This document shows, piece after piece, positions 717 to 64,000 of a DNA stretch of 64,000 nt (positions are counted from its first letter, which is position 1; every line of letters starts with the position of its first letter). The notes under the pieces are model-generated. The model searched no databases. It worked only from the letters and a program-made list of their open reading frames with translations, and was not told the origin of the DNA. The translations under genes were made by a program, and so were the position numbers. The DNA is taken from assembly GCA_031387665.1 (NCBI GenBank), contig JANNDL010000195.1:113-64112 (forward strand), written 5' to 3'. The stretch comes from Chamaesiphon sp. OTE_75_metabat_95. GTDB taxonomy: Bacteria; Cyanobacteriota; Cyanobacteriia; Cyanobacteriales; Chamaesiphonaceae.

Positions 717-957
717 TTTTTCCTCCTTGTGGGTGAAGAATGAGTGCTCTGACCTGAGTGGGTCGCTGTAAAATCTTCTAAACGGGATAGGATGATTATT
801 CCTTCGCCAATCTCATCACCACGTAACTCAGAACCATGCTCGGATTCGGGCTGCTATCGCACCAGTGAGGCTTCGGTCTTGGCTGTCAGAACACATATCT
901 AGCATAATCGCTTGTGAGTGTCCTAGAGCAGTTTCTTTCATCCTTTAAACGACGTAA
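717..957 (-). other. Non-coding end of the IS110-family element upstream of its transposase (candidate guide/bridge-RNA region); the outer boundary is approximate
   Basis: About 240 nt with no plausible ORF lie between the transposase start and the point where the truncated receiver-domain frame opens (about 958). Confidence 0.35.
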
Positions 958-1239
<282 letters not shown>

Positions 1240-1579
1240 CCGATCGATCTATTTTTTGTGATAATTGCTACTAAAATCTTTGATTCGATCTTCAATTTAT
1301 GGATGATCGATCAATGCTTAGTATGTTTTTTTACATTGTATTTAGCTTTCTTCTTACTTGTGCTGTCCCTAGCAAAACTCCAGCTAGCTCTTGCGATTGG
1401 AGGTTGAATCCTCATCACTAATCCGATCAAAGAACTCTAGTTAACACGGAGGCTAAATACGATTAATGTAACAAAAAATATTAGCTTGTTATTTTTTGTG
1501 TTCATATGCTAACATTAGGCAAAGTATCGTAACGCTCTGTAAAGAAACAAGAAATTATCTACCAAAATCGAGGATTTTA

Positions 1580-6700: not shown

Positions 6701-9096
6701 ATAGTTTGAATTCGGGTGAATTCAGAAGTAGAAATCTGTTTCTATTTGCTAACTGGATTCAACATCGCAGTCAATCTATTCGTAAGGTAATGCCAATTTT
6801 AAAAGATGGTTATATGTCTTGCTTAGAGACTGGAGATTTTTTAAATATCGGATACAGTATTAGTTGCTACTTTGATACCAAGTTACTTTGCGGAATAGAA
6901 TTAAGCAGTTGGGAATCTGAAATATCACTTTATATCAAAGAAATAGAACAAATTAAACAGTATTCTGCACAAGCCTATCTAGCAATGAAACAGCAGATAG
7001 CAAAGAATCTTATCGTCAATGGTAGTCAGTCAAATCATCTAATTGGTAGTGCTTATGATGAAAGAGAGATGATTCCCAAGCATCTTGAGACTGGAGATCT
7101 TACTGCTCTTGCTTACGTGTATATCTATAAATTGATGCTGGCTTATTTATTTGGCGATCATCTGGCGGCAAGAGAGAATGTTACTCAAGGTGAAAAGTAT
7201 TTGATGGCGGTTTCAGGGATGATTCCGATTCCAGTATTTCACTTTTATGCAGCATTGACGCAGTTAGCACTGTTTTCCAGTCAGTCAGCATCAGAGCAGA
7301 TTGAAACCTTGGTTCAAGTAGATATCCACCAAGGGACGATCGATCTATGGGCACAAACTGCACCAATGAATTATCGTCACAAATGGGATTTGATTGAGGC
7401 TAAAAAACAGCGGGTACTTGGAAATAAAGCAGCCGCAATCGAACATTACGATCGAGCAATTGCAGGTGCAAAGGAACATCAGTTTGTCAATGAAGAAGCC
7501 TTAGCCAATGAACTAGCTGCCAAATTCTATCTAGATTGGGATAAAGAAAAATTAGCTCAAGCTTACATGATGGAAGCATATTACTGTTATGCTCGTTGGG
7601 GTGCAAACGCAAAAGTTGAGCATTTGAATACACTCTATCCTCAACTTTTGTCGCCAATTCTGCAACCAGATCCGTTGAATTTCTCTGCGCCAGAAAACAC
7701 CGATCTGAGTAGTTCTTTGATGCGTGACTCCACATTTTTAGATTTGGATACTTTGCTCAAAGCTTCGCGAACTATTTCCCAAGAAATTGGACTCGATCGA
7801 TTAATTGCCAATCTATTGGAGATGGTGATTGCCAATGCTGGTGCCGATCTGTGTGTGCTAGTTCTGAACAAAGACGATGATTTGCAGGTAGTTGCCAAGG
7901 CAAAAGTAGGTCAAAAGCCCCAGTTGTTACCGCCGATTTCTTTCGATCGAAGTACCGATTTGGCAGTTAGTTTGGTAAACAGAGTTGCCCGTAGTCTAGA
8001 GCCAATTTTGCTTGGCTCTGGCGATCCGATCCGGTTTGCTGGAGATATTTACCTGGAAACATATCAACCAAAGAGTGTTTTGTGTACTCCCATTCTCAAG
8101 CGAGGTAGATTGATTGGAATCTTATATCTCGAAAACCAATTTACCACTGGTGCCTTTACTCGCGATCGAATTGAAACGCTGGAAGTCCTAATGGCTCAAG
8201 CGGCAATCAGCATCGAAAACGCCAAACTGTACACCGAGTTGCAAGCATCATTTGCAGATCTCGAACTAAAAATCGAAGCCCGCACGATCGAACTCAAAGC
8301 CGCCAAAGAACTGGCAGAATCAGCCGAGCGCACCAAGACTAGTTTCTTTAATAATATGAGTCACGAACTCCGCACGCCGCTAAATGCGATCCTGGGGATG
8401 TCAGAAGGATTGATTGAACAGGTGCATGGTGCTCTCAATCCCAAACAACTCCGATGCAGCCAAGTCATCAATAGCAGCGGCACTCATCTACTGGGATTAA
8501 TCGATGATATTCTGGACTTGGCAAAAATAGAAGCTGGGAAGCTAGAGCTAGATTGTGCCCTGACGAATATTTCGCAGCTCTGTGATGCCAGTATTTTATT
8601 TGTCGAACCCCAGGCTCACAAGAAACAGATTCAAGTAGCCATAAATATCTCCGCTGATTTGCCAGATCTCCTCATTGATGAACGTCGGATTCGCCAAGTT
8701 TTGATTAATTTACTTGGTAATGCGGTCAAATTCACGCCAGAACATGGTCGGATCGACTTGGAAATCACCCACATTGTCACCGCCCAAAATGATTGGATTC
8801 AAATGACGGTGATTGATACAGGGATTGGCATTGCTGCCGCAGATCTCGATCGATTATTTCAGCCCTTTGTCCAAGTTGATAGTACCTTGAGTCGCACGGC
8901 GCAAGGGACAGGGTTGGGCTTAAATCTCGTCCGGGAGCTAGTGGAACTGCATGGTGGGAGAGTTGGTGTCACTAGCGAGATTGGTGTTGGTAGTCGATTT
9001 ACTGTCGATTTGCCCTGTGGGAATACGCCATTTATCTTTCCACTCGCCACTGGGAAGCTTGGATACTCACGTCTTGAACCAGTACAAGAAGATTAG
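3733..9096 (+). CDS. Multidomain sensor: Hanks Ser/Thr kinase, AAA/STAND-like ATPase, TPR-like helical region, GAF, HisKA and HATPase_c
   Basis: 1787-aa ORF. Kinase motifs are HKDIKPANIL, TLAYMAPE and the conserved AEDRYQ segment. The P-loop is VAGSSGIGKT, with LFLDDLQWAD as Walker B. A GAF region spans 7.7-8.2 kb. The H-box is NMSHELRTPLN, and N/G boxes are LLGNAVKFT, DTGIGI and GTGLGLNLV. Confidence 0.9.
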   Translation: MKTIRCVPGYRITEEAHVGTRTIIYRGIRECDLYPVTIELLRNPFPSSQELLTFRNKYDIGKDLDLPHVVKTLALEPYQNAYALVLADGGGILLESYLEQVGAFGSQPESQVRFIQIAIQIAEALEGLYCQRVIHKDIKPANILIQPETQQIELTNFGISSRLPKETQEIKNANMLAGTLAYMAPEQTGRMNRGIDYRCDFYTLGVTCYQLLTGQLPFISNDPMELVHCHLAKQPIPVHQVQSTIPPMLSTIVSKLMAKNAEDRYQNALGLKHDLQICLAQLQQTGKIESFTLAEQDPSDRFLIPEQLYGREPEVSTLLNAFERVSKGIAEIVLVAGSSGIGKTVVVQEIHKPIVRQRGYFIRGKYDQFQRNIPFSAFVQAFGDLMEQLLSESDSQLQTWKTQILAVVGENGQILIDVIPELERIIGQQQPAPELSGGAAQQRFNLLIQKFVRLFTTAAHPLVLFLDDLQWADLASLNLLQLLMQDAGYFLIIGAYRDNEVSPIHPSILAFEEIEKTGVVINTIELTPLTQTDLNRLVADTLNCDLVVAQPLAELVELKTQGNPFFVTQFLKALYEDGLIHFNRLSQDGIGGWSCDLAQIKSVAVTDDVVEFMALQLQKLPIRTQYALTLAACIGSQFDLDTLAIISEQSPADTAAALWAGLEENLLIPTSETYKLFTNVDLRSTSTAETNPVYRFLHDRIQQAAYSLIYDDRKQETHFKIGQLLYQNSSEVARQERLFDIAGHLNVARSLITQSKDRSALARLNLNAGKKARSATAYAAASAYLQTGIEILASNCWETDYQLTLDLHVEAAGTAYLEGNLVQMEEIAATVLRSARTISDKVEIYRIQIAALTVNGKMLEAVIIGKSALSQLDIELPNTFDEIENDKTLSNLANQMEGRQIEDLLDLPLMSNLSAELTMKLLTDLCAPIFIAMPSLYPIISARMVSLSLLFGNTSASTLGYVNYGLVLSSFSGDVERGYRFGNLALNLTDSLNSGEFRSRNLFLFANWIQHRSQSIRKVMPILKDGYMSCLETGDFLNIGYSISCYFDTKLLCGIELSSWESEISLYIKEIEQIKQYSAQAYLAMKQQIAKNLIVNGSQSNHLIGSAYDEREMIPKHLETGDLTALAYVYIYKLMLAYLFGDHLAARENVTQGEKYLMAVSGMIPIPVFHFYAALTQLALFSSQSASEQIETLVQVDIHQGTIDLWAQTAPMNYRHKWDLIEAKKQRVLGNKAAAIEHYDRAIAGAKEHQFVNEEALANELAAKFYLDWDKEKLAQAYMMEAYYCYARWGANAKVEHLNTLYPQLLSPILQPDPLNFSAPENTDLSSSLMRDSTFLDLDTLLKASRTISQEIGLDRLIANLLEMVIANAGADLCVLVLNKDDDLQVVAKAKVGQKPQLLPPISFDRSTDLAVSLVNRVARSLEPILLGSGDPIRFAGDIYLETYQPKSVLCTPILKRGRLIGILYLENQFTTGAFTRDRIETLEVLMAQAAISIENAKLYTELQASFADLELKIEARTIELKAAKELAESAERTKTSFFNNMSHELRTPLNAILGMSEGLIEQVHGALNPKQLRCSQVINSSGTHLLGLIDDILDLAKIEAGKLELDCALTNISQLCDASILFVEPQAHKKQIQVAINISADLPDLLIDERRIRQVLINLLGNAVKFTPEHGRIDLEITHIVTAQNDWIQMTVIDTGIGIAAADLDRLFQPFVQVDSTLSRTAQGTGLGLNLVRELVELHGGRVGVTSEIGVGSRFTVDLPCGNTPFIFPLATGKLGYSRLEPVQED

Positions 9097-38757: not shown

Positions 38758-38950
38758 TGTATTGCCGCACTTTCTACTACTCTCTTTCCGCTCTAGGACT
38801 ATAGATTAGTCTTTTCGTCTGGAGAAGAAGAGTCACGATTTGACATCGTGACTATAAAATTGGTCTTTTCAATGATTTATCTACATAAATTTCCAGAATG
38901 ATCTCAATTTAGTTTTAGTGTCAACTAAAAACCCATAATTGAGGACTGTT

Positions 38951-41074
38951 ATGGAAATCGTCAATCTATCAGTGGGAAGTATTCTCGCAGCACGTTATCA
39001 AATCGCCGAACTGCTGGGTGAAGGTGGTAGCGGTAGCACCTACCGAGCGACTCGCCTTGAAGACGGCACATCCGTAGCCATCAAAGTTCTGTCCCTGCGC
39101 CATCTCAACGACTGGAAACAGCTTGAACTATTTGAGCGGGAAGCAAAAGTATTATCCCAACTCAATCATCCCCAGATTCCTGAATACCTGGAATATTTTC
39201 ACGTCGATACACCTGACAATCGCGCCTTCTACATCGTCCAACAACTTGCACCTGGAAAGCCACTCACCGCTTGGGTGCAATCTGGCTGGCGTAGCACCGA
39301 AATTGAAGTGCGAGATATCGCCAGTCAGTTGCTCGAAATCTTACAATATCTCCACCAACAGTCCCCACCGCTGATTCATCGCGATCTCAAGCCTCACAAT
39401 ATCATCCGCAATGACGATGGACGAATCTTTCTCGTCGATTTTGGCGCGGTGCAGAATGTCTACAACAATACGATGCTCAAAGGCTACACGGTTGCCGGAA
39501 CCTATGGCTATATGGCTCCAGAACAGTTTCGGGGTGCCGCAGTACCCGCAAGTGATTTGTATGGCTTGGGTGCAACTATACTGTATCTCTTGACTCATCG
39601 ATCGCCAGCAGATTTACCTCAAGAACGCTTGAAGCTGAGTTTTCGCACTCATGTGAATATCTCTAACCATTTTGCCGACTGGTTAGAAATGATGCTGGAG
39701 CCAGATACTGCTGACAGATTCTCATCAGCAGATGTAGCTTTGAATGCTTTGAAGAAACAACATCAATTCCGCATTCAAACGGGGACTAAAATTGGGTTTC
39801 CGTGGCGGGGTACTGCACTAACAGCCGCAATTTTGGTAATCCTTGCACCACTAATTTATCGATATCGTTATGCTCTTTTGACTAGTATTGGCATAACATC
39901 TCACGAACCTTGTGAATTAATTGGGGAGAATAATCGAAAATCACTGGATGAGTACCTTGCTCATGGTGTCAGTATTAATGCCAGTGTTGGAGTTGGTGAA
40001 TTTATTGAATTTGGTAAATATAGAATTGGTGGAACTGGTTCGTTATTACACTGTGCAATTCAATCTGAGCAGACTGAAATCATGGCGGATTTAATCAGAA
40101 AAGGTGCAGATATTCACATACTTAACAGTGCTGGATACTCTCCATTAATGGTTGCAGTACAAAATTCTAATGCCTCAGCAGTGAGAAATCTACTTCAAGC
40201 TGGAGCAGACCCACATGCTGTTGATCGAAAAGGACTTTCATTATGGCATTTTCTAAATTGGAATAATTCCGATCGAGAAGAAAACAAAGTAAAAACCCAG
40301 TCAATTCCTAAAGAATTGATCGCCAAAAAAGTAGATATTAATAAGCAAGATATCGAAGGGAATACTCCTTTGCATTTAGCACTTAAAAATTCTAATGATC
40401 TGGCAACTTATATGCTATTGAATTATAAAGCCAAAACCGATGTTAGCAACAATCGAGGGCAAACCACTTTGATGACTGCGGTTATTAGTCAAAATTTTGA
40501 TATGGTAAAACTGTTAATATCACAGGGTGGTGGAGTTAATATTGCAGATAACTATGGTACAACACCACTAATGGCGACAATTACAGGTAATACGGGTGAA
40601 TATAGTGATATCTTTACGATTGAACATATTGTACCAATGTTTACTAGAGGTGAAGTTAAATCAATAGATACCACACTCCCGATTCCTAAGATTATCAATT
40701 TGTTAATAGATAAAGGTGCTAGTCTAAATCTTGTCAATCTAGATGGAGATACAGCCTTACATTTGTTGGTAAATCTTGAAACTATTGCTAAGAATGATAT
40801 TGGATGCGCTCAAAATAGGTCTCTGGCAATATATATACTGGATTTACTAATCAAGCATCAAGCGGATCTAAGCATAGTTAACAAGAATGGTGATACTGCT
40901 TTACATGTATTAGCTAAAAAAGACTTCTTTCCTGTAACTGATCGAATGATTCAATATGGCGCAAACCCACTTCATCAAAATGCTAAAGGTAAAAATGCTG
41001 TAGAGTTAGCTAGCGCGGTAGGGAATAGACAACAGAGATGTCCGCCGCGACGACAACGTGAAAGTGTTAGATAG
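38951..41074 (+). CDS. Hanks-type Ser/Thr kinase - TM - ankyrin-repeat protein
   Basis: The ATG at 38951 is preceded by GAGGA. Kinase motifs are GEGGSGSTY, AIKVL, HRDLKPHNII, DFG and GYMAPEQ. One TM helix lies near residue 290. At least five ankyrin-like repeats are present (GYSPLMVAVQNSNASAVRNLLQAGADP, GNTPLHLALKN, GQTTLMTAV, GDTALHLL, GDTALHVLAK). Confidence 0.88.
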   Translation: MEIVNLSVGSILAARYQIAELLGEGGSGSTYRATRLEDGTSVAIKVLSLRHLNDWKQLELFEREAKVLSQLNHPQIPEYLEYFHVDTPDNRAFYIVQQLAPGKPLTAWVQSGWRSTEIEVRDIASQLLEILQYLHQQSPPLIHRDLKPHNIIRNDDGRIFLVDFGAVQNVYNNTMLKGYTVAGTYGYMAPEQFRGAAVPASDLYGLGATILYLLTHRSPADLPQERLKLSFRTHVNISNHFADWLEMMLEPDTADRFSSADVALNALKKQHQFRIQTGTKIGFPWRGTALTAAILVILAPLIYRYRYALLTSIGITSHEPCELIGENNRKSLDEYLAHGVSINASVGVGEFIEFGKYRIGGTGSLLHCAIQSEQTEIMADLIRKGADIHILNSAGYSPLMVAVQNSNASAVRNLLQAGADPHAVDRKGLSLWHFLNWNNSDREENKVKTQSIPKELIAKKVDINKQDIEGNTPLHLALKNSNDLATYMLLNYKAKTDVSNNRGQTTLMTAVISQNFDMVKLLISQGGGVNIADNYGTTPLMATITGNTGEYSDIFTIEHIVPMFTRGEVKSIDTTLPIPKIINLLIDKGASLNLVNLDGDTALHLLVNLETIAKNDIGCAQNRSLAIYILDLLIKHQADLSIVNKNGDTALHVLAKKDFFPVTDRMIQYGANPLHQNAKGKNAVELASAVGNRQQRCPPRRQRESVR

Positions 41075-41130: not shown

Positions 41131-42534
41131 TTGGTATTTCTAATTCTGTCCTATGATTATCGTAAATTAATGAAAGATATTATTCTAGTCGATCGATATC
41201 GAATTATAGATATACTCGGTGAAGGTGGTAGCGGCAAAACCTATCGTGCTGTCGATGAGTACGATCGATCTGAAGTAGCAATTAAGATTTTGAGTCTGTG
41301 GGGAATGAAAGATTGGAAAACACTGGAATTGTTCGATCGAGAGGCTAAAATTCTCGCGCAGTTAGCACATCCAGCAATTCCACGCTATTTAGATTATTTT
41401 CAGACTGAGGTAGCTGGCAAAGAGGCTTTTTGTCTAGTGCAAGCGATCGCGCCAGGTCGATCTTTGACAGCTTGGATTCAGTCTGGATATCTATTTAGTG
41501 AAATAGAAACTCGCCAGATTGCCACACAAATCTTGGATATTCTAATTTATCTTCAGACATTTACACCGCCAATTATTCATCGCGATCTCAAGCCGCAAAA
41601 CTTATTATTGAGCGAATCCGGTAATATTTCCTTAGTAGACTTTGGAGCCGTGCGCGATACATATCATTTGACCATTACAGGCGGCAGTACGATCGTTGGA
41701 ACTTACGGTTATATGGCTCCTGAACAATTTCGCGGACAAGCAGTATTAGCGACAGATCTATATGGCTTAGGGACGACATTATTATATCTGATCTCTGGTC
41801 AAGATCCGGCGGATTTGCCAGTCAGACAGATGAAAATAGATTTTCGCCAACGTGTCAAAACATCACCTGATTTTGCGAATTGGATCGATCGATTATTGGA
41901 GCCGATACCAGAGGATCGTTATCGTAATGCGACTCAAGCTTTATCATTCCTAAACGGTAAAGTTTGTGCGAGAGTACCTCGCCCTAAACATCCGATTTCT
42001 CGCATTTATCAACAGGGTAACAATCTAAAGATAGTTATCCCACCAATTTGGTTAGCGACACGCAGCAGCCAAATAACTTTTTTTACTGCGACATTCTTGC
42101 TGCTATCAGCACTCTTTGGTTGGTGGCTGATGAGAATAGCTATTTTAGACGAAAGATCATGGTGGCTATTCTTACTTGGTGGAATTGTTGTTATTCCCTG
42201 GATGATACGAGTGCTGTGGCATTATTTTGCTGCTGTTACTTGTCAGAGTGAAATAGAAGTAATCAGCAGAGAATTAATTTGCAAGACTAAAATAGCAGGG
42301 ATGTCAGTTAAACATATCATAAAAATTGAGGATATCAAAAGTATTAGACATCAAGAAGTAAGCATACTAAGCTTGAAAGATAGTATTCAATTCAAGATAT
42401 CTGGGCAACAATATTATCCTTACAATTTTGGCAACTATTTAGAGTACACTGAACAGCGGTGGTTAATCAGTGAGATTTTAGAGCATTTACGGCTTTGTCC
42501 TGAGATTGAAGAAATTGATAGACCTTACCTATAG
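41131..42534 (+). CDS. Hanks-type Ser/Thr kinase with a C-terminal two-TM plus soluble domain (paralog of the preceding kinase)
   Basis: [63 protein letters not shown] and GYMAPEQ are present. The kinase domain aligns along its length with the previous gene. The likely start is ATG 41170. Confidence 0.88.
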
Positions 42535-53757: not shown

Positions 53758-53762
53758 GTAAA

Positions 53763-53912
53763 TATTTTCCAGTATGGGACATTGGATTCTTCACCACCTG
53801 TTCCGCGCTACTAATTCACCACCCTTATTCCCACCTTCTGAACCCGATCATTGGCGATAGCGGAGCGCGTTGGGCTTCAACGCCGAAGAGGGTGGGGGCG
53901 GTTTGTCCGAGA
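53763..53912 (-). pseudogene. uvrA: uvrA 3' fragment C (about 150 nt, heavily degraded, internal deletions)
   Basis: TATTTTCCAGTATGGGACATTGGATTCTTCACCACCTGTTCC...CTTATTCCCACCTTCTGAACCCGATC aligns with 54671-54770 of fragment A. CGCGTTGGGCTTCAACGCCGAAGAGGGTGGGGGCGGTTTGTCCGAG aligns with the LSGGEAQRV-coding part. Confidence 0.7.
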
Positions 53913-53915
53913 GGC

Positions 53916-54313
53916 TCAAGGCTGAAAACGTAAATGTTGAAGAGATCGCACTTTTGCAATCGTTTCAAAATCACGATCGTTATGAATTAAAGTAAATTAT
54001 TTTCTAGGGCAGCTTGAGCAATACAGCAGTCAATTGAACTACGAACGGTGAGTCCTTTTCGGCGCAGATTGTAGTAAACACGGGCGGCTGCTTGCCAGGA
54101 ATGATTAGTAGGTTCGATATAGTCTTGCGTGTCGAGATAGGTGGAAAGGAGATTCCACTCTTTTTCGTCCAAACTTCCTTGGAGTAGTTCGAGTTGAGTG
54201 AAGCGTGTGAGTAAAACTTCCCGACCATCGATGAGAACTTCGAGTTTTTGGCGTACTTGTCCAGTCCGATCTCGAAAAACAGTAATCCAAACGGAGGTAT
54301 CAATCAACAACAT
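53916..54313 (-). pseudogene. vapC: VapC (PIN-domain) toxin with a -1 frameshift near the 3' end
   Basis: MLLIDTSVWITVF...SSIDCCIAQAALENNLL stops at 53987. The next frame continues LIHNDRDFETIAKVRSLQHLRFQP to a stop at 53916-53918. The shift lies in the A/T run at 53989-53991. Confidence 0.75.
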
Positions 54314-54512
54314 GATGATTCTCGCGCATAGCTTTATAGTCGAAGTCTTCTGTAAATTGAATTTGTCCGGCCAGATCGAGGAGATTTTTCTTGCGACGGG
54401 AACGCACGAGTTCTTGTAGAGCCAAATTCATTAGTTCTTCCTGGGTGCTGAATTTGGTGAGTTGGAGAGCTTCTTCTAGGAGGGATTCATCTAGGTTAAG
54501 AGTTATTTGCAT
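54300..54512 (-). CDS. vapB: VapB-family antitoxin (DUF2191-like)
   Basis: MQITLNLDESLLEEALQLTKFSTQEELMNLALQELVR. It overlaps the vapC start by 14 nt. Confidence 0.8.
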   Translation of the reverse strand: MQITLNLDESLLEEALQLTKFSTQEELMNLALQELVRSRRKKNLLDLAGQIQFTEDFDYKAMRENHHVVD

Positions 54513-54625: not shown

Positions 54626-55428
54626 TCAAGTTTTCACCGCTGCTGAATGTTGTTTCAATACTTGCTTGAGATACTTCCCAGTATGCGACTTAGGATTCTT
54701 CGCCACCTGTTCCGGTGTCCCGACAGCGACTAATTCTCCCCCTTTATTACCACCTTCTGGCCCCAGATCGATCGTCCAGTCGGAGCAGCGAATCACGTCG
54801 AGGTTGTGTTCGATCGCGAAGTGTGGGCTTTGCCCAATCGCAATCACGGAGTTTCCCTTATCGACTAGTCGCTGAAGCACATCTAAGAGCTTATGGACAT
54901 CGTAGAATGACAGTCCGGTAGTGGGTTCGTCGATTAGATATAGGGTTTTGCCTGTGGCGCGTTTGGAGAGTTCGGTGGCGAGTTTGACTCGTTGGTCTTC
55001 ACCACCGGAGAGGGTGGGGGCGGTTTGTCCGAGTTTGACGTAGCCGAGTCCGACATCGAGGAGGGTGGCGGCGCGGGGGATATTTAAAGAAGAATTCTAA
55101 GCCTTCTTCGACAGTCATATTCAGGACATCGGCTATTCTCTTTACAGAGAGGCTCCGCCAACGATTTACCCTTATATTTAACTTGGAGGGTTTCGCGATT
55201 GTAGCGTTCGCCTTTGCAGACATCGCACTGGACGTAGACATCGGGGAGGAAGTTCATCAAAGGTGGTGTTTACCCCTTGTCCGCTACAGGCTTCACAGCG
55301 TCCACCTTTGACGTTAAAGGAAAATTGTCCGGCTTTATAGCCACGTGTTTTGGCTTCGATGGTTTGGGTGAAGACTTCGCGGATGGTGTCGAATACGCCT
55401 GTATGGGTGACGGGATTCGATTCCCCAT
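54626..55428 (-). pseudogene. uvrA: uvrA 3' fragment A (about 0.8 kb; C-terminal ABC module remnant with frameshifts and insertions)
   Basis: Three broken frames read [50 protein letters not shown], ...[16 protein letters not shown]..., and ...[14 protein letters not shown][GQSPHFAI][37 protein letters not shown]. It starts exactly at the stop codon of the S8 protease gene. Confidence 0.85.
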
Positions 55429-58362
55429 CTAGCTTATCCGTAATGCTCCACCCCCAGAAATAACAACAGCATAATCTTGTTCTCCCATCTGAACATCGGC
55501 AACAATCTCGATTCTCCACTCGCCAATTTCAGGCGATTTTACAACGACTCCTTCGACATTATTAATGTTATCTGGACTGCCAGTTTCCTCAAAATCATTA
55601 CCCAGATAGTGTTTACCACTGGGACTGCGGAAGACTAAATTAAGATTGTTAATTAAGTTTTCGCCTGGGTAGTCTGTATAAACAAGGGTGACTTTGAGTG
55701 GAATTGAGGAATCGGTAATTTTCACTTTATGCTCATGTTTTTCACCTGTGATTAAACCATTTGCTTCATCAATCAAGATTGCTTGAGTTGTTGTTGCTGG
55801 TTTTAAAACTTTCTGCAAGTCCACTCTACCCCATCCTTGCTCGTTATCTGCCCAAGGTGCTGAAGCCGGATGAGCATGACGATAGTTGATGTATTGGGCT
55901 GAGTGGATTAGTATTGCTTTAACCAAAGCAGCACTGGGATTGAATATAGATGGCTGATGGTTTTCGCGCAGATATTGGCGAACTAATGCGGCACATCCAG
56001 CAACCAAGGGTGTTGCCATCGAAGTTCCATGCATATACATGTAATGATATCTCGCTGGGGGATAAGCTCCATCAGCAAAATTATTACTGGCAATCTGAGA
56101 GGAACGAGTAGAAAGAACAAAAGTACCTGGAGCAACTACATCGGGTTTGCGACGACTTGGTTGATAATATCGATCTAAACAAGGTCCTCGACTGCTAAAA
56201 GGTGCAATATCATCAATTGAATCAGCTATATTAACAGACTTGAAAGGTTCATATGGAAAGTTGTCTGGATTTTGATTTCCATACGTATCAGAAAATTGAC
56301 CGCTACGATCGTTTTCAGATGCGCCAATGGTCAAGCAGTTTTTAGCCGTTCCAGGAGTATTGACATTGCTTTGTTCTATACCATTCCCTGAAGATCGATG
56401 TTTACCATTATTTCCAGCAGCAACTACTACTAAGAAATCTTTCTGACCCCAGACAAATTCATCTAGTTTTTGACACCTAAAGTCATAGAATCCGTCACCT
56501 CCTCCTCCCCAGGAGTTAGAATGAATTCGCGCACCCTTTTCGTAAGTATATTGAAATAATTCTGTCAGATCTTCAGGAATCCCGAATAATGCTGATGGCG
56601 GTGGCATAACATCAAAATTTTCTATATAGAACAAAGAGCCTTCTAGAGTCCATTTTGTAGTTTGTTCAACAGCTTGAAAAATTAATTTCGCCTCAGAAGC
56701 TGTACCTGCGGGAATGGAAGAAATTTTTAATTCTTTTGCTTGTGTTCCATCACCCAAAGCACTTCCAGCTACATGGGTTCCATGTCCTGAGAATTTGTCA
56801 GATGCTCCATCATCATCTCCCATATTTTGTAGATAGGTTTCCCACCATCCTTTTGTGATCGGATAACTTTTAATATCGATAACTCGTCCTTGTAAATCAG
56901 GATGCAGAAACTCTCGATCGCCTGTATCCAGTCCAGTATCTGCGATCGCAATAATTTCGTCCCTACCCGTTAAGCCAAGGGTTGGGATAGGATTAGAAGG
57001 AATAACACCTTTAGCAATTACACAACCAGCTTTTTCGTTAAATATTCTGGGGATAGTTTTTTCTTCTAAGGAGCGCAGTCCTTCCTGTGAGCTGATTATT
57101 TTAAAGAGATCGAGTGCATTAGTAGCAGCACTAATATCTACGATCAACAAATCTTTTCCTGGAAGATCACCAATACGAATCCCTGGAATAGATTCTAAAT
57201 TTTGTGCAGCCAGATCGCGATCTTTTGTTGTAAAGAAAACAGCTACTAAAATTCCTGGAAGTGTCAGGTTTCGAGGCGGAGAATTATTAGTATTTCTGGC
57301 AGCATTTAACCTAGCCGCCGAGATCGCTTCTTTGGTAGCTGGTTGACCTAGATTTTGAAGTGATTGTGTTTGAACTCGAATATTGGGAACGTAAGCAGTG
57401 ACTTGGGCTACTTCTTCAAAATCCCTAATTTGGTTCGCAATATCTTCACTAGGAACGGCAACTACAAATTCTAACCTACCTAAAGGCTGTAGTATTTTTG
57501 AACCTGTGTCCTCTATTCTTTGTTTCCAACTTTCTAGCACAGGAGCGTTAAATCTTATCACTCGATCTCTTGTATTCACGTCAGAGCCTCCACTGAGGGG
57601 ATTGGATTCTTGTAATGATTCAATTTTTTCAACTCGACAACATTTTTTGATTTCGGATATCGTATCTTGAGTTGCCCCTGTGACAAAACTGTATGCAGAA
57701 TAAGATTGTATAATATCTATCTTTTCTCGAAAACGATTTAAGTCCTTACCAGCCGTATAATAAACCTTGTATCTAACTTTTTTTGCCTGAATACGTTGCT
57801 CGATCTCATTTTTAGCACGAACAACTAAGTTTTGTATTGTGGGAGTCAGAGGTGCATCATAACCCGATCGATCGATATCTGTTTGTATAGTCCGTAACTT
57901 TTGTAAAGTCCGTAGCTTGTCAATCGTATCTAGCTCAATTTCTTCGCCTTGAGCTAAAGCCCACCTTAATGTAGCTTCAAAATCAGAATCGCTAGGGGAT
58001 AAAAGGACAGTAAGTCGCCACATTTTTTCCGCCTTATTCTTGGAGTTTAGTAATTCATCTGACTCATTCGGACGTATATCTGTATTTTCGAGACTGATTT
58101 GTTCGATTGAATCCAGGTTGTTAGCCAAAATAGTAGCCACGGGAGGCATTAATTCAAGAATTTCTTCATATGAGTCTTGCATTTTTATTAATAAATTTAA
58201 TGCCTTTTCTATATTTTTTCTGATCTGCGGATCTATTTTTGATAATGAGTCTTTTTCATTTCTAATGAAATCGATAATTTTGCTATTCATTTCTGTTGTT
58301 TTTACACGACCAATGTATTTTATTGATTGCGGCAATGATGTTAAAGTTAAATCAAACGTCAA
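55429..58362 (-). CDS. Intracellular S8 (subtilisin-like) serine protease with a ~450-aa N-terminal region of unknown family and a C-terminal beta-rich domain
   Basis: The catalytic residues are intact: Asp in [13 protein letters not shown], His in [13 protein letters not shown], Asn in VVVAAGNNG and Ser in [19 protein letters not shown] see no signal peptide or TM helix. The TTG start lies 3 nt after the receiver stop, and ATG 58290 is an alternative start. Confidence 0.85.
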
Positions 58363-58365
58363 TTC

Positions 58366-58764
58366 TCAATTATCCGCGAGTATTCTATCCACATTGCTTG
58401 CCAATTCAAATGGAAGTACTCCATCTTTGTGAAATACTAGTGTTTTTTCTGATTCGATATTTGTCAGCTCATTGTTTCGGAAATTAGTAAATATAATCAC
58501 AGGAATATTTCGATTTAATTGCCTAACTTTTTGGTAGAAACAAATCCCTGTTCTTAAACCATCATTTGTTTGTTCGTCATCAAAACTATTTCCAGTTGGC
58601 ATCATAACATCTAGAATTAAAAGCTTTAATTGATCGCAATTCTTCTCGAAAAAATTAAGAGCATCATCAACATCAGATTCAAATTTCACTTGGTAATGAG
58701 ATAATTCTATTGCTTCGACATAACTCCTCATCCTTCTTCTCTCATCATCTACGAATAATATCAT
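58366..58764 (-). CDS. Stand-alone response-regulator receiver (no output domain)
   Basis: MILFVDDERRRM...LLILDVMMPTGN...VIIFTN...FHKDG carries the DD pocket, the phospho-acceptor Asp, and the T and K. Its ATG overlaps the kinase stop as ATGA. Confidence 0.85.
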   Translation of the reverse strand: MILFVDDERRRMRSYVEAIELSHYQVKFESDVDDALNFFEKNCDQLKLLILDVMMPTGNSFDDEQTNDGLRTGICFYQKVRQLNRNIPVIIFTNFRNNELTNIESEKTLVFHKDGVLPFELASNVDRILADN

Positions 58765-61052
58765 CGATTATCTCCAGAAATGTGTTTTGGTAAAATCAGT
58801 TGAAATTCAGTGGGATTCGCATTGCGTACTAATTTTAAGTCCCCACCTAACTGTTTCATAATTGTTGCAGAAATATTCAATCCTAATCCAGAACCACCTA
58901 CTTTAGCAATGGCTTCAGATGAACGGAACCCTTCTTTGAAAATATTGTTTGAATCATCTTCTTTAATCCCTATTCCCCCATCTTGGAATTTAATAATAAA
59001 ATTATTTCTGTCTTGTTCAACTTCGATAGATAGATTAAAGTCCTTTGGACTTCTTTTCGCGTATTTGAATGCATTCATTAAAATATTGAACACCACTTGA
59101 TTGAGCTTAATTCTATCAGTAAAGACAATAATTTTATTTGCATCATCTTTGTTAAATTTTATTCTATCAAAAGAGAAATTATACTCTTCATTAATGTATG
59201 ATTTAAGCTGATAAATAGTTTTCATGATAATATCTCTAAAAACAACAACCTCTTCTAACTTAATTGTTTCTAAAGAACTTTTGCCTAACAAATATTCAAT
59301 TTGTCCCACTTGATAAAAAAGTAATTCGCAATCTGTCTGAATATCTTCGAGTTTAATTGTTGTTTTTTGTGGACTATACCTAACATCATCAAAAGTTCGC
59401 TGAACAAAGCTTGCGTGTCCTCTTATCGCTACTATTGGAGATCTCAATTCATGAGTAATTCTATCGATTAATCTTGCTTTTTCACGCTCGATAGCATGAG
59501 CAGCACAATCAACAAGACTTTTGAGTATTGTTACATCTTGTTCATATATATGTTGTCGGCATTCTCTTGGATAACCAGCTTCAACAGTCCCAATTACTTG
59601 ATTACTAGAAGGTTCAATAATTGGCAAGAAAACCCTGATAAATTTTTCATGACCATATTTTTTGTAAATTAATCGATCAAAGCGTTTATCTTCTGGATCT
59701 GGAACTTCAATTTCTTTACTTCTAACAATATTTGATTGGATATCATCATCACCTAAATCATGCTCTGCATCCTGTTTAAACTCTTTACTTAATTTTTCTT
59801 CTAGTCCTGATGTACGTTCGGAGCTTATAGTGTTTGCTTCTATATTTACTCGTGATATGTTGACCCATTCAAACCCAAGTATTTTGATGATAGCATCAAT
59901 AATTTGATTCATTATAAAATCATAATCTTGACTCTTGCTTATTTTTTGCTCTACAACTCTAATTTTCTTGCCTTTCTCGTAGAAAATAAGCCTTTCAATT
60001 CTGATACTTGCATCATCCGCCAACAACAAAATTCTCTTTTTATGAGTATCTGAGAATGCATTAAGAGCAGAGCTTTCAATATTTATTACCCCAATGCATT
60101 TTTTCGATCCTTTTTTAAATTCTTTACCCTCCATTATCTGTGCTTTATCTACTATTGGAATTGCGATCTCAGATCGTGCATTTTTCCATATATCAGAAAC
60201 AAAATCTCCGGTCTTGAAAGCATTATTAGCTTCAACAATTCTCTGTTCTCTAATTGCCTGTCTAGTGATTCCTTGACCTAGCTCCCAATGCAGTTTATCA
60301 TCATAACCTTTTTCTTCAGTTTTTCTAACAACTTTTAAGTTACCACTTGCATAATTAATCTTAGCCAATAGAATATGGATGTCTTTCTTGCAATCACTTT
60401 CCAAAATTTCCGAGACACCATTGTATAGTGCATCCCATATCTCTTCTGTTGTAGTAGCATCATTCATTTCCCTCATCGTATTCATCATACTTTCAATCCG
60501 AGATCGATCTTTTTCAATTTCCTGACTAGCAACAATAGATCGATCCTTTCCTAAAAATACTGTTATTCGATCGACTAGAATCTTAAATAAGTTCTTTTCC
60601 CATAGTTGAAAGTGACGAGTCTCTGTGGTGAAAATATTGAGTGCGCCTACAGCCTCTCCATTAGCTTCTAATACTGTACTCATTAGTGAAACCCATTTTC
60701 TTGCTTTAATATCATCTATTTCAACCAATCGATATTTTGATTGGCTTACATCAGGCAAACACCAAATTTTATCTCCGCTAGATAAATTTTGCTGAATCGA
60801 TGGATGTGCCGTATCTAGCTCAAGTTGCTTATACTCTTTATCTACCTCTCCATGAGTCGCCACAATTTTAAATTTTGACTCCCCTGGCTGTTTTTCCCAG
60901 AGAATACAAATAGGTACTTCGAGTAATTGACAGACTCCTGCTAGAAAAACTTGTCGAAATTCACTCTGCGATGCTGAACCCAATCTTTCTGACAACTGAC
61001 CTAACTCAGATAGCTTTTGGCTAAAATCGACATTATTACTGGGATCTTCCAT
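58761..61052 (-). CDS. Cytoplasmic histidine kinase with three GAF-like domains
   Basis: 763 aa with no TM helix. Three ~170-aa GAF-like modules are followed by the H-box ITHELRSPIVAIRGHASF, the N-box NILMNAFKYA, and G-boxes DGGIGI and GGSGLGLNIS. Confidence 0.85.
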   Translation of the reverse strand: MEDPSNNVDFSQKLSELGQLSERLGSASQSEFRQVFLAGVCQLLEVPICILWEKQPGESKFKIVATHGEVDKEYKQLELDTAHPSIQQNLSSGDKIWCLPDVSQSKYRLVEIDDIKARKWVSLMSTVLEANGEAVGALNIFTTETRHFQLWEKNLFKILVDRITVFLGKDRSIVASQEIEKDRSRIESMMNTMREMNDATTTEEIWDALYNGVSEILESDCKKDIHILLAKINYASGNLKVVRKTEEKGYDDKLHWELGQGITRQAIREQRIVEANNAFKTGDFVSDIWKNARSEIAIPIVDKAQIMEGKEFKKGSKKCIGVINIESSALNAFSDTHKKRILLLADDASIRIERLIFYEKGKKIRVVEQKISKSQDYDFIMNQIIDAIIKILGFEWVNISRVNIEANTISSERTSGLEEKLSKEFKQDAEHDLGDDDIQSNIVRSKEIEVPDPEDKRFDRLIYKKYGHEKFIRVFLPIIEPSSNQVIGTVEAGYPRECRQHIYEQDVTILKSLVDCAAHAIEREKARLIDRITHELRSPIVAIRGHASFVQRTFDDVRYSPQKTTIKLEDIQTDCELLFYQVGQIEYLLGKSSLETIKLEEVVVFRDIIMKTIYQLKSYINEEYNFSFDRIKFNKDDANKIIVFTDRIKLNQVVFNILMNAFKYAKRSPKDFNLSIEVEQDRNNFIIKFQDGGIGIKEDDSNNIFKEGFRSSEAIAKVGGSGLGLNISATIMKQLGGDLKLVRNANPTEFQLILPKHISGDNR

Positions 61053-61266
61053 ACTGCTTACACCTATACTGACGGCAAGGAACGCTTAATCACCCGATCG
61101 ATTCATCACAAGTCTCGTCGTCTCAAACAAGCTTGCCTTATACATTATGTGATAATTGTAACAAATACCGAAGATCCATCTCAACAACTTGTAATATTTT
61201 TTGACTGGCAGTAAATACCATCTCGTTTAGAGAAAATGTACCCTAGACGAACAAAACCTGCTTCCT

Positions 61267-62030
61267 CTACAAGTAAGTTTTTCCAGATGGCGCGTGTTGT
61301 TTCAACACCTGTTTCAAATACTTTCCCGTATGTGAAATCGGATTTTTCGCCACCTGTTCCGGTGTCCCCACAGCTACTAATTCTCCCCCCTTATTACCAC
61401 CTTCTGGCCCCAGATCGATCGTCCAGTCGGAGCAGCGAATCACGTCTAGGTTGTGTTCGATCGCAATCACCGAATTACCTTTATCTACTAGTCTTTGCAG
61501 CACGTCTAGGAGCTTGTGGACATCGTAGAATGAGAGTCCGGTGGTGGGTTCATCGATGAGATACAAGGTTTTGCCAGTGGCGCGTTTGGAGAGTTCGGTG
61601 GCGAGTTTGACGCGCTGGGCTTCACCGCCGGAGAGAGTGGGGGCAGTTTGTCCGAGTTTGACGTAGCCGAGTCCGACATCGAGTAGGGTTTGGAGGCGGG
61701 TGGCGGCGCGGGGGATATTTTGGAAAAATTCTAAGCCTTCTTCGACGGTCATATTTAGGACATCAGCGATTCTCTTGACAGAGAGGCTACGCCAACGATT
61801 TGCCCTTATATTTAACTTGGAGGGTTTCACGGTTGTAGCGTTCGCCTTTGCAGACATCGCACTGGACGTAGACATCGGGGAGGAAGTTCATCTCGATGAT
61901 GTTCACACCTTGTCCGCTACAGGCTTCACAGCGTCCACCTTTGACGTTGAAGGAAAATTGTCCCGCTTTATAGCCGCGTGTTTTGGCTTCGATGGTTTGG
62001 GTGAAGACTTCACGGATGGTGTCGAATACG
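61267..62030 (-). pseudogene. uvrA: uvrA 3' fragment B (about 0.76 kb; C-terminal ABC module remnant carrying a 25-nt insertion)
   Basis: The frames read [76 protein letters not shown], then the 25-nt insert, then [64 protein letters not shown]...[11 protein letters not shown]...IEHNLDVI...GPEGG. The N-terminal two thirds of UvrA are absent. Confidence 0.88.
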
Positions 62031-62126
62031 TCGAATAATAATTTGAGATCGATGTGTAACTTTGTTCAGACAAGGGAATCATGGGTATATCCGATATATT
62101 CCCAAACTATTTCCCTCGATATATCC

Positions 62127-64000
62127 ATGAGTTACTGCCTAAACTCTAATTGCCAAGCTCCAGCCAATAATCCCGCCCGTACCAGCTTTTGTTTATCTTG
62201 CGGAGCTTGGGTACTGCTTAAAGATCGCTATCGCGCCCAGAAGCTATTAGGACAAGGCGGATTTGGCAAAACGTTCAAAGCAGTAGATGAACACCAACCC
62301 AGTCAGCCGTTGTGTGTAATTAAGCAGTTTGAATTTGGTAGCAATAATCCTCAAATCAGGGAGACGGCTCTAAAACTATTTTATGATGAGGCACGACATT
62401 TAGAGTCATTGGGGAAACATCACAATATTCCAGAACTACTAGCTTATTTTGATATTGAAGGTCAACCTTATTTGATTCAGCAGTTTATTGATGGGCAAGA
62501 TCTAGAGCAGGAACTAGCGACAGCAGGTGTATTCGACCAAAGCAAGATCCGCAAACTACTTCTTTCATTTCTACCAGTTTTAGATTTTTTACATAAAAGA
62601 TCGATACCAGTGATTCATCGAGATATTAAGCCTGCCAATATTATTCGGCGGTGCAGCGATGACAGTTTGGTATTAGTCGATTTTGGTGCGGCAAAACAAG
62701 CAACGAAGACAATATTAGGGAAAACAGGTACTCTTATCGGTAGTCCAGAATATACGGCACCAGAGCAACTAAGAGGTAAACCAACATTTGCTAGTGACAT
62801 TTATAGTTTGGGAGTGACTTGCATCTATTTACTTACCCAAGTTTCACCGTTTGACTTATTTGATATCAATCAAGACGCTTGGGTCTGGAGAGATTATCTG
62901 ATTAATAATCCAGTCGATGCAGAGTTGGGTCGAGTATTAGATCGAATGATTTCTAATTCCCTTCCTCAACGATATCTGTCAGCAACAGATGTGTTAGCAG
63001 CATTAGGGAATTATCAGCCAATAGTTACTCAAAATTCTATTTCACAAAATTTAAAGACACTCGATCTGGCTAGCCCATATGGAAATCTAAATTTTGACAA
63101 CTTCACTAAAGTTCAAGCGAAACCTCTGAATAATCAACATCCTCTTCAACCTCTCGATCCTGAAATAGCTAAAATACAACTCGATAATTCTACTGAAACT
63201 CAAGCCAAACTCCCCCACAATTCTCCTCCCCTCAAATCGTTTGAGTTTGAGACAGCTAAAATACGCATTGAAGAGCTAGGCGGCTTGTGGGGACATACTA
63301 AAGTTGTCATTAAAAAATCGCGTGGACAATCTAAAAAATTTATCGAATATTTTGGAGGTGGAGTAAACCTAGAAATGGTTGCAATCCCAGGTGGAAGTTT
63401 CTTGATGGGGGCACCAAAATTAGAGCCACAAAGCTATGATAACGAAAGACCACAGCATCAAGTACAAATACCACCATTCCACATGAGTAAGTATGTAATC
63501 ACGGTGGCTCAATATCAGACAGTAATGAGAGACAAATCCTATAGTAAAGATGAAGCAGATTTACCTATGACGTGTTCATGGCAAGGAGCAGTATCATTCT
63601 GTGAGAAGTTATCGAAAGGCTTGAAGCTAAATTATCGACTTCCATCTGAGGCAGAGTGGGAATATGCTTGTAGGGCAAGAACAACAACACCTTTTTATTT
63701 TGGAGAAACTATTGATAAAGAGCTTGCTTACTATGATTCAACGATGGCTTATGGAAGAGGTCAGAAGGATGAAAAGTCTAGTCGTATATCAGGAAAGAAG
63801 GTCGGAAGTCATCCAGCTAAAGATTTTGGTTTATACGACATGCATGGAAATGTGGAAGAATGGTGCGCTGATTCTTGGCATCCAAATTACATAGATGCCC
63901 CGACAAATAGTATTGCTTGGGTTTCAAGTAATAGCAATGAACGTGTCGTTCGGGGTGGTTGTGGAACAACTGATCCCTGGCTTTGTCGCTCGGCTGCACG
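62127..64000 (+). CDS. Zinc-ribbon - Hanks Ser/Thr kinase - formylglycine-generating-enzyme (FGE/SUMF1) domain protein, 5' part (continues past the right edge)
   Basis: The ATG is at 62127. The sequence is MSYCLNSNCQAPANNPARTSFCLSCGAW...LGQGGFGKTFKAVD...VIHRDIKPANII...DFGAAK...GSPEYTAPEQ, then GGSFLMGAP...ERPQHQVQIPPFHMSKYVITVAQY...LPSEAEWEYACRA...YDMHGNVEEWC. It stays open to position 64000 and is absent from the ORF track because it has no stop. Confidence 0.88.
   Translation, partial: MSYCLNSNCQAPANNPARTSFCLSCGAWVLLKDRYRAQKLLGQGGFGKTFKAVDEHQPSQPLCVIKQFEFGSNNPQIRETALKLFYDEARHLESLGKHHNIPELLAYFDIEGQPYLIQQFIDGQDLEQELATAGVFDQSKIRKLLLSFLPVLDFLHKRSIPVIHRDIKPANIIRRCSDDSLVLVDFGAAKQATKTILGKTGTLIGSPEYTAPEQLRGKPTFASDIYSLGVTCIYLLTQVSPFDLFDINQDAWVWRDYLINNPVDAELGRVLDRMISNSLPQRYLSATDVLAALGNYQPIVTQNSISQNLKTLDLASPYGNLNFDNFTKVQAKPLNNQHPLQPLDPEIAKIQLDNSTETQAKLPHNSPPLKSFEFETAKIRIEELGGLWGHTKVVIKKSRGQSKKFIEYFGGGVNLEMVAIPGGSFLMGAPKLEPQSYDNERPQHQVQIPPFHMSKYVITVAQYQTVMRDKSYSKDEADLPMTCSWQGAVSFCEKLSKGLKLNYRLPSEAEWEYACRARTTTPFYFGETIDKELAYYDSTMAYGRGQKDEKSSRISGKKVGSHPAKDFGLYDMHGNVEEWCADSWHPNYIDAPTNSIAWVSSNSNERVVRGGCGTTDPWLCRSAA

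Follow-up and report, generated by a model that had tools for sequence, protein, structure and literature searches.

A candidate post-translational switch in Chamaesiphon: a GAF-domain kinase, a stand-alone receiver and a subtilase with a helical domain that recurs on other effectors

A cassette of three genes in the cyanobacterium Chamaesiphon sp. OTE_75_metabat_95 encodes a histidine kinase (HK) with GAF-type sensor domains, a stand-alone receiver (REC) and a subtilisin-like serine protease of family S8. It lies in a 64,000 nt stretch of contig JANNDL010000195.1 (assembly GCA_031387665.1), the whole of which is called the window here. The three genes recur in the same order across two phyla, and a helical domain at the N-terminus of the protease is attached elsewhere to very different effectors, again behind a receiver of the same subfamily. 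On this evidence we give a probability of about 0.55 to the reading that the cassette represents, with a subtilase as effector, a modular three-gene switch which travels as a unit, and in which the receiver acts post-translationally on the effector by way of the helical domain. That domain, together with the modular family built around it, is the main new result; the family was not found described. The three open reading frames (ORFs) are:

55429-58362, minus strand: S8 protease, 977 aa from a TTG start
58366-58764, minus strand: stand-alone receiver, 132 aa
58761-61052, minus strand: histidine kinase, 763 aa

The cassette and its three proteins

The ORFs are tightly packed on a common strand, as an initial annotation of the window had already read from the sequence. 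The stop codon of the kinase gene and the start codon of the receiver gene overlap by 4 nt (ATGA), and between the receiver stop (TGA) and the TTG start of the protease lie only the 3 nt GAA. For the protease there are two candidate starts, 24 codons apart, because an ATG at 58290 (residue 25, 72 nt downstream of the TTG) is where the homologue P0003 begins, and because residues 1-23 are disordered in the AlphaFold2 model; this ATG rather than the TTG may be the true start.

The domains of the kinase are as follows:

60561-60947, minus strand: GAF-like segment 1, residues 36-164 (Pfam GAF, E 1.9e-3 when scanned alone, below the curated threshold)
59994-60308, minus strand: GAF-like segment 2, residues ~249-353 (Pfam GAF_2, E 3.8e-4 when scanned alone, below the curated threshold)
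59487-59927, minus strand: GAF domain 3, residues 376-522 (Pfam GAF_2, 43 bits, E 6.6e-11, above the curated threshold)
59376-59480, minus strand: H-box region of HisKA (dimerisation and histidine phosphotransfer, DHp), residues 525-559 (weak Pfam HisKA match; predicted phospho-acceptor H534 in 'ITHELRSPI')
58785-59117, minus strand: HATPase_c domain, residues 646-756 (Pfam, 64 bits, E 1.9e-17; N, G1 and G2 residues invariant)

Three GAF modules had been proposed in the initial annotation; one of them exceeds the Pfam threshold and the other two segments fall below it, so that the triple arrangement is plausible and partly backed. The H, N and G boxes, described there as intact, proved invariant in the 11 orthologues aligned (H534, N656, D691/G693/G695 and G720/G722/G724). 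By its sequence the protein has what characterizes the kinase of a classical two-component system, namely a phospho-acceptor His in the DHp domain and the N, G1 and G2 boxes for the binding of ATP.

The receiver matches Pfam Response_reg (E 1.6e-8). D6, D7, E8, D52 and K113 are invariant among 12 aligned orthologues, and position 93 is Thr or Ser, in line with the earlier statement that all phosphorylation residues are present and that the 132 aa protein has no output domain. The alignment thus indicates a receiver with its acidic pocket, phospho-acceptor Asp (predicted to be D52), Thr/Ser and Lys. Its subfamily is a distinct one, marked by an extended beta3-alpha3 loop with an invariant 'GLRTG' motif. 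A search of 5.8 billion proteins returned 266 clusters of this subfamily at E<=1e-15, and the best 120 of the 266 are 129-151 aa long, except for one of 219 aa; the named hosts are Nostoc, Tolypothrix, Crocosphaera, Blastocatellia and Thermoanaerobaculia. The 4 nt gene overlap and strict co-occurrence support the kinase and receiver as a cognate pair, between which phosphotransfer is presumed. The best PADLOC match of the receiver is to the N-terminal part (positions 9-131 of 323) of the Shedu SduA model PDLC00405, with E 2e-7 for the window receiver (58366-58764) and 1e-9 for the receiver of locus L088 (3304-3714; see below), which hints that a related receiver is fused to the Shedu nuclease in some defence loci.

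In the protease, six domains can be delimited (pLDDT, predicted local distance difference test):

57778-58290, minus strand: N-terminal helical domain, residues ~25-195 (~170 aa, all-helical in AlphaFold2; predicted partner of the receiver)
57622-57774, minus strand: ferredoxin-like (beta-alpha-beta-beta-alpha-beta) domain 1, residues 197-247 (AlphaFold2; shared with P0033, a variant upstream of a CHAT gene)
57376-57567, minus strand: ferredoxin-like domain 2, residues 266-329 (AlphaFold2, pLDDT ~90)
57052-57267, minus strand: ferredoxin-like domain 3, residues 366-437 (AlphaFold2, pLDDT ~90), directly before the catalytic domain, at the position of an I9-type subtilisin propeptide
55828-56967, minus strand: S8 catalytic domain, residues 466-845 (Pfam Peptidase_S8, E 2.4e-43, 149 bits)
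55432-55800, minus strand: C-terminal beta-sandwich domain, residues ~855-977 (AlphaFold2 all-beta, pLDDT 80-93)

The Asp/His/Ser triad and the oxyanion Asn (D475, H530, S781 and N651) are invariant in 20 homologues, which bears out the catalytic set named in the initial annotation. Alignment and model together suggest an active subtilase, with this set placed in a Peptidase_S8 fold. The best structural match of the catalytic and C-terminal parts is KP-43 (1wmd; E 2e-30, template modelling (TM) score 0.80, 34% identity), and SubHal is matched as well; these matches span 518-520 alignment columns, and both enzymes carry a C-terminal beta domain.

A simple hydropathy scan, run with no dedicated predictor, found no signal peptide or membrane helix in any of the three proteins, in agreement with the first reading, and so gave no sign that the protease is exported. 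Peak 19-residue Kyte-Doolittle values in the three are 1.74, 0.61 and 1.56, with the peaks lying within folded domains, and the homologues aligned with the protease also begin with polar, helical N-termini.

Pfam has no match in protease residues 1-465, as expected from the earlier remark that some 450 N-terminal residues could not be assigned. An AlphaFold2 model of residues 25-455 (pLDDT 78) begins with a helical part (~27-194) and continues with the three ferredoxin-like domains. The conserved core of the helical domain (~105-195) includes R116, W134, G139 and L144, and its only near-invariant residues are those of an R...W....G....L...R motif. The domain has no match in Pfam, NCBIfam, PADLOC or PDB sequences, Foldseek gave no significant global match for the N-terminal model, and when the core alignment was used in a word-indexed protein search there were no matches at E<=1e-5. 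Foldseek did align part of the model locally with the subtilisin propeptide 1scj_B (probability 1.00, TM 0.68, root-mean-square deviation (rmsd) 2.1 A, 63 columns), and other ferredoxin-like folds were also matched. Foldseek does not report which domain was matched; by its position, the 1scj_B match probably falls on ferredoxin-like domain 3.

The beta-alpha-beta stretches that had been likened to subtilisin propeptides are therefore right at the level of the fold. A regulatory N-terminus had likewise been proposed; the ferredoxin-like, propeptide-like folds to which that role was assigned are there, and the helical domain was missed. Neither these folds nor a helical domain that matches no model identify the region as a known non-regulatory domain. 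Two other assignments were considered and rejected: a receiver hidden in the protease N-terminus, which would be the canonical layout of the Detocs defence system (see below), is excluded by the AlphaFold2 model and Pfam, and a phosphotransfer domain of the HPt (histidine phosphotransfer) type fails since the helical domain has no conserved His or Asp.

Conservation of the trio and exchange of the effector

Homologues of the protease form 26 clusters among the 5.8 billion proteins. Look-ups of these, and a scan of one genome per species with a sub-alignment of the protease N-terminus as query, yielded 15 loci in which the trio is kept in the same order and on the same strand, and the kinase and receiver are present at every locus whose protease has the long N-terminus. 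The hosts are several Nostoc, Tolypothrix, Nostocales LEGE 12452, four Crocosphaera, Chloracidobacterium, Blastocatellia, a metagenome-assembled genome of another member of the Acidobacteriota, and one metagenomic contig. The flanks of the trio differ between loci except among close Nostoc relatives, and all-against-all clustering of the flanking ORFs found only the kinase, receiver and protease to be common to the loci. A fourth conserved gene, for example one for a substrate, is not common to the 15 loci, and none of them encodes a DNA-binding output, which extends to the whole set what the initial annotation had observed in one strain. Conservation in 15 loci excludes a chance association of the three genes.

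The A+T-richness noted at the outset is also real. The GC content of the cassette is 0.365, compared with 0.449 +/- 0.018 (minimum 0.409) in equal-sized segments elsewhere in the window, and GC at third codon positions is 0.24-0.27 against 0.33-0.54. In all ten of the other loci tested, the GC content of the trio is below that of its flanks, and at some loci the cassette adjoins toxin-antitoxin or insertion sequence (IS) genes.

The helical domain reaches well beyond proteases. A profile of this domain alone, run exhaustively against 1.84 billion representative proteins, found 233 carriers at E<=1e-3 (154 at E<=1e-10), most of which are non-protease proteins of 150-700 aa. Among the best 148 of the 233, the partner domains recognized by Pfam include DUF5678 (23), Xre_MbcA_ParS_C (18), HEAT (15), Peptidase_S8 (7) and TIR_2 (5). 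Gene context was checked for eight diverse carriers: two with TIR domains, one trypsin-like ('GDSG'), one antitoxin-like, one with DUF5678, one with HEAT repeats, a form preceding a CHAT gene, and an S8 protease of a second type. All eight lie directly downstream of a stand-alone receiver of 133-136 aa from the same subfamily, and seven also follow a homologous multi-GAF kinase; at the eighth, the TIR locus L086, the receiver is present and there is no adjacent kinase. The receivers of these loci match the receiver profile at E ~1e-48 to 1e-59 and the kinases match the kinase profile at E down to 1e-264 and below, which marks both as orthologous to those of the window. A metagenome search from the receiver side gave identical synteny wherever contig extent allowed. 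Altogether, the 'GLRTG' receiver is directly upstream of a protein with the helical core in the window, in 15 S8 loci and in 11 loci with other payloads, and the multi-GAF kinase is directly upstream of the receiver in the window and, L086 excepted, in all loci with upstream sequence.

The payloads themselves are varied. The antitoxin-like variant (L088), which has an Xre_MbcA_ParS_C-type domain, is followed by a gene for a RES-domain toxin, another variant is followed by genes for a CHAT caspase-like protease and a Pepco protein, and the TIR domains of carriers are closest to defence TIRs of the pAgo-associated, SAVED-TIR, Thoeris and retron types. Other carriers are followed by 2H phosphoesterase-like genes and a 615-631 aa protein. 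Such a repertoire is typical of bacterial conflict systems.

Further genes were seen beside these variants. The 615-631 aa protein has a weak ADP_PFK_GK-like match and recurs downstream of carriers (L093, 9470-11314; the locus of P0072); in L093 a gene for a 2H (LigT-like) phosphoesterase comes after it, a similar 2H gene is found downstream in L089, and the two proteins may be a further multi-gene payload. Genes of ~170 aa that follow the variant with helical domain and DUF5678 (L089, 3228-3737; L094, 1821-2321) have a common 'LDTG.D' motif, reminiscent of retropepsin-like aspartic proteases by the motif alone, with no Pfam match. Beside a TIR-variant system, L114 has a divergent gene (1-2753, minus strand) for a protein of at least 1273 aa made up of many GAF domains, which matches the sensor part of the kinase profile at E 8e-179.

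A second branch of the protease family lacks the helical domain. These shorter relatives (763-830 aa) start at ferredoxin-like domain 1, have no kinase or receiver nearby, and occur in Caldilinea and other Chloroflexota, in Planctomycetota, in a deltaproteobacterium and in methanogenic archaea. Relatives of this kind (L020, L021 and L024-L029, with the protease mostly at ~9.6-12 kb) also seem to be without signal peptides, and sit after genes for very large proteins that contain CarboxypepD_reg, S-layer, DUF6519, matrixin or Cleaved_Adhesin domains, which suggests that the branch has a different role.

Such neighbours bring up the idea that the window protease, too, is a secreted or surface enzyme of nutritional function that merely adjoins two-component genes, with an N-terminus serving as a folding chaperone for export. 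KP-43 and SubHal, the closest solved structures, are secreted alkaline proteases, and distant relatives in Brevibacillus do have signal peptides. No export signal or membrane segment was found in the window protein, however, and its aligned homologues have equally polar, helical starts; no DNA-binding regulator is encoded through which the two-component pair could control transcription of the protease, and payloads other than proteases show the link between helical domain and receiver as well. A secreted enzyme is thus very improbable here.

Proposed mechanism and alternative explanations

In the mechanism that we propose, the soluble multi-GAF kinase would sense an intracellular cue and autophosphorylate on H534, and the phosphate would then pass to D52 of the receiver. 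Having no output domain, the receiver would contact the ~170 aa helical domain of the third protein. In the window, this domain is fused to three propeptide-like domains, which would hold the KP-43-like protease as an intracellular zymogen, and the signal from the receiver, be it the phosphorylated or the unphosphorylated form, would free the block or trigger its removal, allowing the protease to cut presumed cytoplasmic targets. In the sister loci, kinase, receiver and helical domain are the constant part and the payload is a TIR domain, another serine protease, the antitoxin of a RES toxin or an adjacent CHAT gene; by the same logic, the RES toxin would be released from its antitoxin-like domain. 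The post-translational output inferred in the initial annotation withstood the checks made here, and is strengthened by the fact that the helical domain travels with the stand-alone receiver whatever effector is attached to it. For the family as a whole the chances appear about even that the helical domain docks a dedicated receiver, that one GAF kinase thereby unleashes swappable killing payloads, and that the arrangement is a second phosphorelay route to immunity or cell death after Detocs.

The order of control between receiver and effector could also be different. By analogy with Detocs, the receiver would be a phosphate sink that buffers stray kinase activity, and the effector would be triggered by contact between kinase and helical domain or by phosphorylation of the latter. 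The gene order kinase-receiver-effector is compatible with this, and the stand-alone receiver of Detocs, DtcB, has been proposed as such a buffer (bioRxiv 10.1101/2023.01.24.525353). The present system, however, has no second receiver and its effector does not contain one, the helical core offers no conserved His or Asp that could accept the phosphate, and the TIR carrier at L086 keeps its receiver without an adjacent kinase, which makes the receiver and helical domain the tighter link. We regard the sink arrangement as quite improbable.

As to the biological role of the proposed switch, a response in conflict or of the suicide type (abortive infection or programmed cell death, for example) is most likely, rather than housekeeping; it is favoured by the payloads, by the patchy and rare distribution, by the low GC content and by the occasional toxin-antitoxin and IS neighbours. 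A competing reading is physiological regulatory proteolysis, in which the GAF kinase would sense a metabolic or developmental cue (nutrient, redox or cyclic nucleotide) and the receiver would switch on the protease for turnover or differentiation. A precedent by analogy is CpdR, a single-domain regulator that steers proteolysis by ClpXP. The flanks of the trio are mostly housekeeping genes (glmS, a psaC-like gene and htrA at L001, a cbb3 oxidase cluster at L004), the sensor region of the kinase is strongly conserved across effector variants, which suggests one cue, and viral-contig matches and named PADLOC systems beyond generic domain similarity are both wanting. On the other side stand the rarity of the proteins (26 protease and 266 receiver clusters out of 5.8 billion proteins), a GC content below that of the flanks in every locus tested together with a varying genome position, and the swapping of payloads (TIR, RES toxin/antitoxin, CHAT), a pattern of conflict systems that is hard to fit to one housekeeping role. 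A physiological function is therefore considered unlikely.

Several observations weigh against the proposed switch and its conflict role. The contact between receiver and helical domain is a prediction, the domain could mediate oligomerization instead of receiver binding, and L086 departs from the three-gene arrangement. Within the protease, Pfam Inhibitor_I9 has no match even at E<=1, and no significant sequence similarity among the three ferredoxin-like domains was detected by hhalign. In the model of the full-length protease, which is mediocre (pLDDT 67.7), the propeptide is placed differently from that of solved pro-subtilisins (rmsd ~20 A on superposition), which leaves autoinhibition as a presumption. 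The conservation of the kinase across effector variants suits a physiological cue as well as a phage cue. Lastly, the often housekeeping flanks form no consistent defence island, no full-length match was found on plasmids, and viral contigs, searched from the receiver side, gave no match.

Described systems and the surroundings in the window

Among described systems the cassette is closest to Detocs, which comprises the kinase DtcA, the stand-alone receiver DtcB and the receiver-effector DtcC, and for which an anti-phage role has been demonstrated (Rousset et al., bioRxiv 10.1101/2023.01.24.525353). Each is an operon of three genes, for a cytoplasmic sensor kinase, a receiver that stands alone and an enzyme that acts as effector and does not bind DNA; in both the effector domains are swapped between operons and the output is post-translational (presumably so in the case of the cassette), and the receiver-only protein is encoded between kinase and effector, a likeness of architecture only. 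The cassette is nevertheless not a member of Detocs, because the effector-borne receiver is absent: DtcC has its own N-terminal receiver, whereas the protease has a helical domain, no Response_reg match and no receiver fold. The Detocs sensor consists of tetratricopeptide repeats in place of GAF domains, and Detocs effectors are mainly PNP (purine nucleoside phosphorylase) ATP nucleosidases, in contrast to the S8, trypsin-like and TIR effectors, with adjacent CHAT or RES genes in some loci, of the present family. PADLOC returned only PDC-M43B, SduA, PDC-M60B/C, subtilase and IetS; no model named for Detocs was matched, and the presence of one in the release is unconfirmed. The statement in the initial annotation that no described system of this composition was known to it holds for the architecture, which was not found described, and needs the qualification that Detocs is a described precedent for a defensive two-component system.

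Two-component systems are almost invariably interpreted as switches of transcription, and Detocs showed that they can be used in immunity. The present locus points to a different design, with a separate receiver and a new adaptor-like domain linking many effectors. If the reading is right, it would provide a new protein domain and a new interface between a receiver and its partner, a tractable intracellular subtilase zymogen gated by phosphorylation, and a compact, modular kinase-to-enzyme switch for synthetic biology. It would also add a family to the candidate systems for defence or cell death in cyanobacteria, a group little explored in this respect and one in which, together with Acidobacteriota, the family would be concentrated.

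Single-domain response regulators that act through protein partners are exemplified by CheY with FliM, CpdR priming ClpXP, and Spo0F. The window receiver resembles these in lacking an output domain and in its proposed signalling by protein contact, and CpdR also ties phosphorylation to proteolysis. It differs in that the predicted partner is a dedicated domain, fused to an effector and encoded beside the receiver, rather than a shared cellular machine, and in belonging to the 'GLRTG' subfamily with its long beta3-alpha3 loop. Similarity to the CpdR model itself is generic (E 0.0036; the cut-off is 180 bits).

With pro-subtilisin, Tk-subtilisin, Tk-SP and KP-43, the protease has in common the intact S8 triad and, by its modelled fold, a candidate propeptide directly upstream, the ferredoxin-like domain that probably accounts for the match to the subtilisin propeptide. 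In contrast to these propeptide zymogens, it has three tandem propeptide-like domains and a helical domain, no signal peptide, and two-component genes alongside that would control it. IetAS resembles the cassette as an accessory module whose presumed effector is an S8 protease, but here only the kinase and receiver are conserved with the protease, and no IetA-like ATPase. The NCBIfam IteS_antiphage match reaches 44 bits, where the cut-off is 900, and covers only residues 714-823, and the PADLOC IetS match is confined to the catalytic core; membership in IetAS thus fails on the family score and on the missing ATPase partner.

The L088 variant can be compared with the toxin-antitoxin systems Xre-RES, ParST and MbcTA, since its antitoxin has the C-terminal toxin-binding domain and is followed by a RES toxin gene. 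The antitoxins of those systems have an N-terminal Xre helix-turn-helix, while that of L088 begins with the helical domain and the pair sits behind a kinase and a receiver. The window itself does not have this variant.

Systems based on adaptor domains (effector-associated domains, EAD, and Death-like domains) share with the present family a small helical domain, a wide choice of effectors (TIR, caspase-like, trypsin and subtilisin) and enrichment in cyanobacteria. They differ in having NTPase or vWA-MoxR cores and homotypic pairing of adaptors, whereas the kinase and receiver studied here do not carry the helical domain. As it matches no Pfam model, this domain is none of any EAD models that Pfam may hold. 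Two papers by Kaur et al. report no histidine kinases among vWA-associated effectors (eLife 2020, PMC7159879) and describe receivers that occur independently of histidine kinases (eLife 2021, PMC8195603). In Ambrosia, a two-component pair with a DNA-binding regulator controls a restriction-modification-like system at the level of transcription. No description of a kinase-receiver-protease, -TIR or -CHAT architecture was found in the accessible text of the literature searched, in which only Detocs, Ambrosia and conflict-system papers of the Aravind laboratory came near.

The cassette is bordered in the window by fragments of the 3' end of uvrA (uvrA'), by a toxin-antitoxin pair and by a promoter-like site:

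53760-53911: third, short uvrA' copy, beyond the PIN/VapB pair
53987-54512, minus strand: PIN-domain toxin (108 aa) and VapB antitoxin (70 aa), overlapping by 14 nt, between two uvrA' fragments and adjoining the cassette
54628-55397, no strand assigned: uvrA' repeat copy b, degenerate and frameshifted with broken ORFs, on the protease side
61155-61184, minus strand: best promoter-like site, ~100 nt upstream of the kinase start (TTGAGA, 18 nt spacer, TG-TACAAT)
61275-62030, no strand assigned: uvrA' repeat copy a, with a 202 aa ORF that has an ABC_tran match, on the kinase side

The uvrA' direct repeats and the vapBC neighbour reported in the initial annotation were both located, and the repeats are 86-95% identical in four blocks (repeat families D1-D4). 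The accessory or defence-island context claimed from them stands for these flanks and does not extend to the family, since the trio loci have no consistent context. The promoter-like site has 10 of 12 consensus matches in a consensus scan; it is weak evidence because the number of such sites in the region is not above chance.

Three uvrA' copies separate an amidotransferase-like gene, vapBC, the trio and a Ser/Thr kinase gene, and the 64 kb window contains no body of a uvrA gene. The arrangement looks like serial insertion of small islands at one site, with no integrase visible. Just beyond the upstream uvrA' copy begins an ORF (61983-64000, plus strand) of at least 672 aa with Ser/Thr protein kinase and FGE-sulfatase domains, which runs off the end of the window. 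Genes for other kinases of eukaryote-like type lie farther away on the plus strand: a 1787 aa protein with Pkinase, AAA_16, GAF, HisKA and HATPase_c domains (3733-9096), a Pkinase-ankyrin protein (38939-41074) and another Pkinase protein (41131-42534). The stretch at 40-43 kb is also AT-rich, with a GC content of 0.35-0.41.

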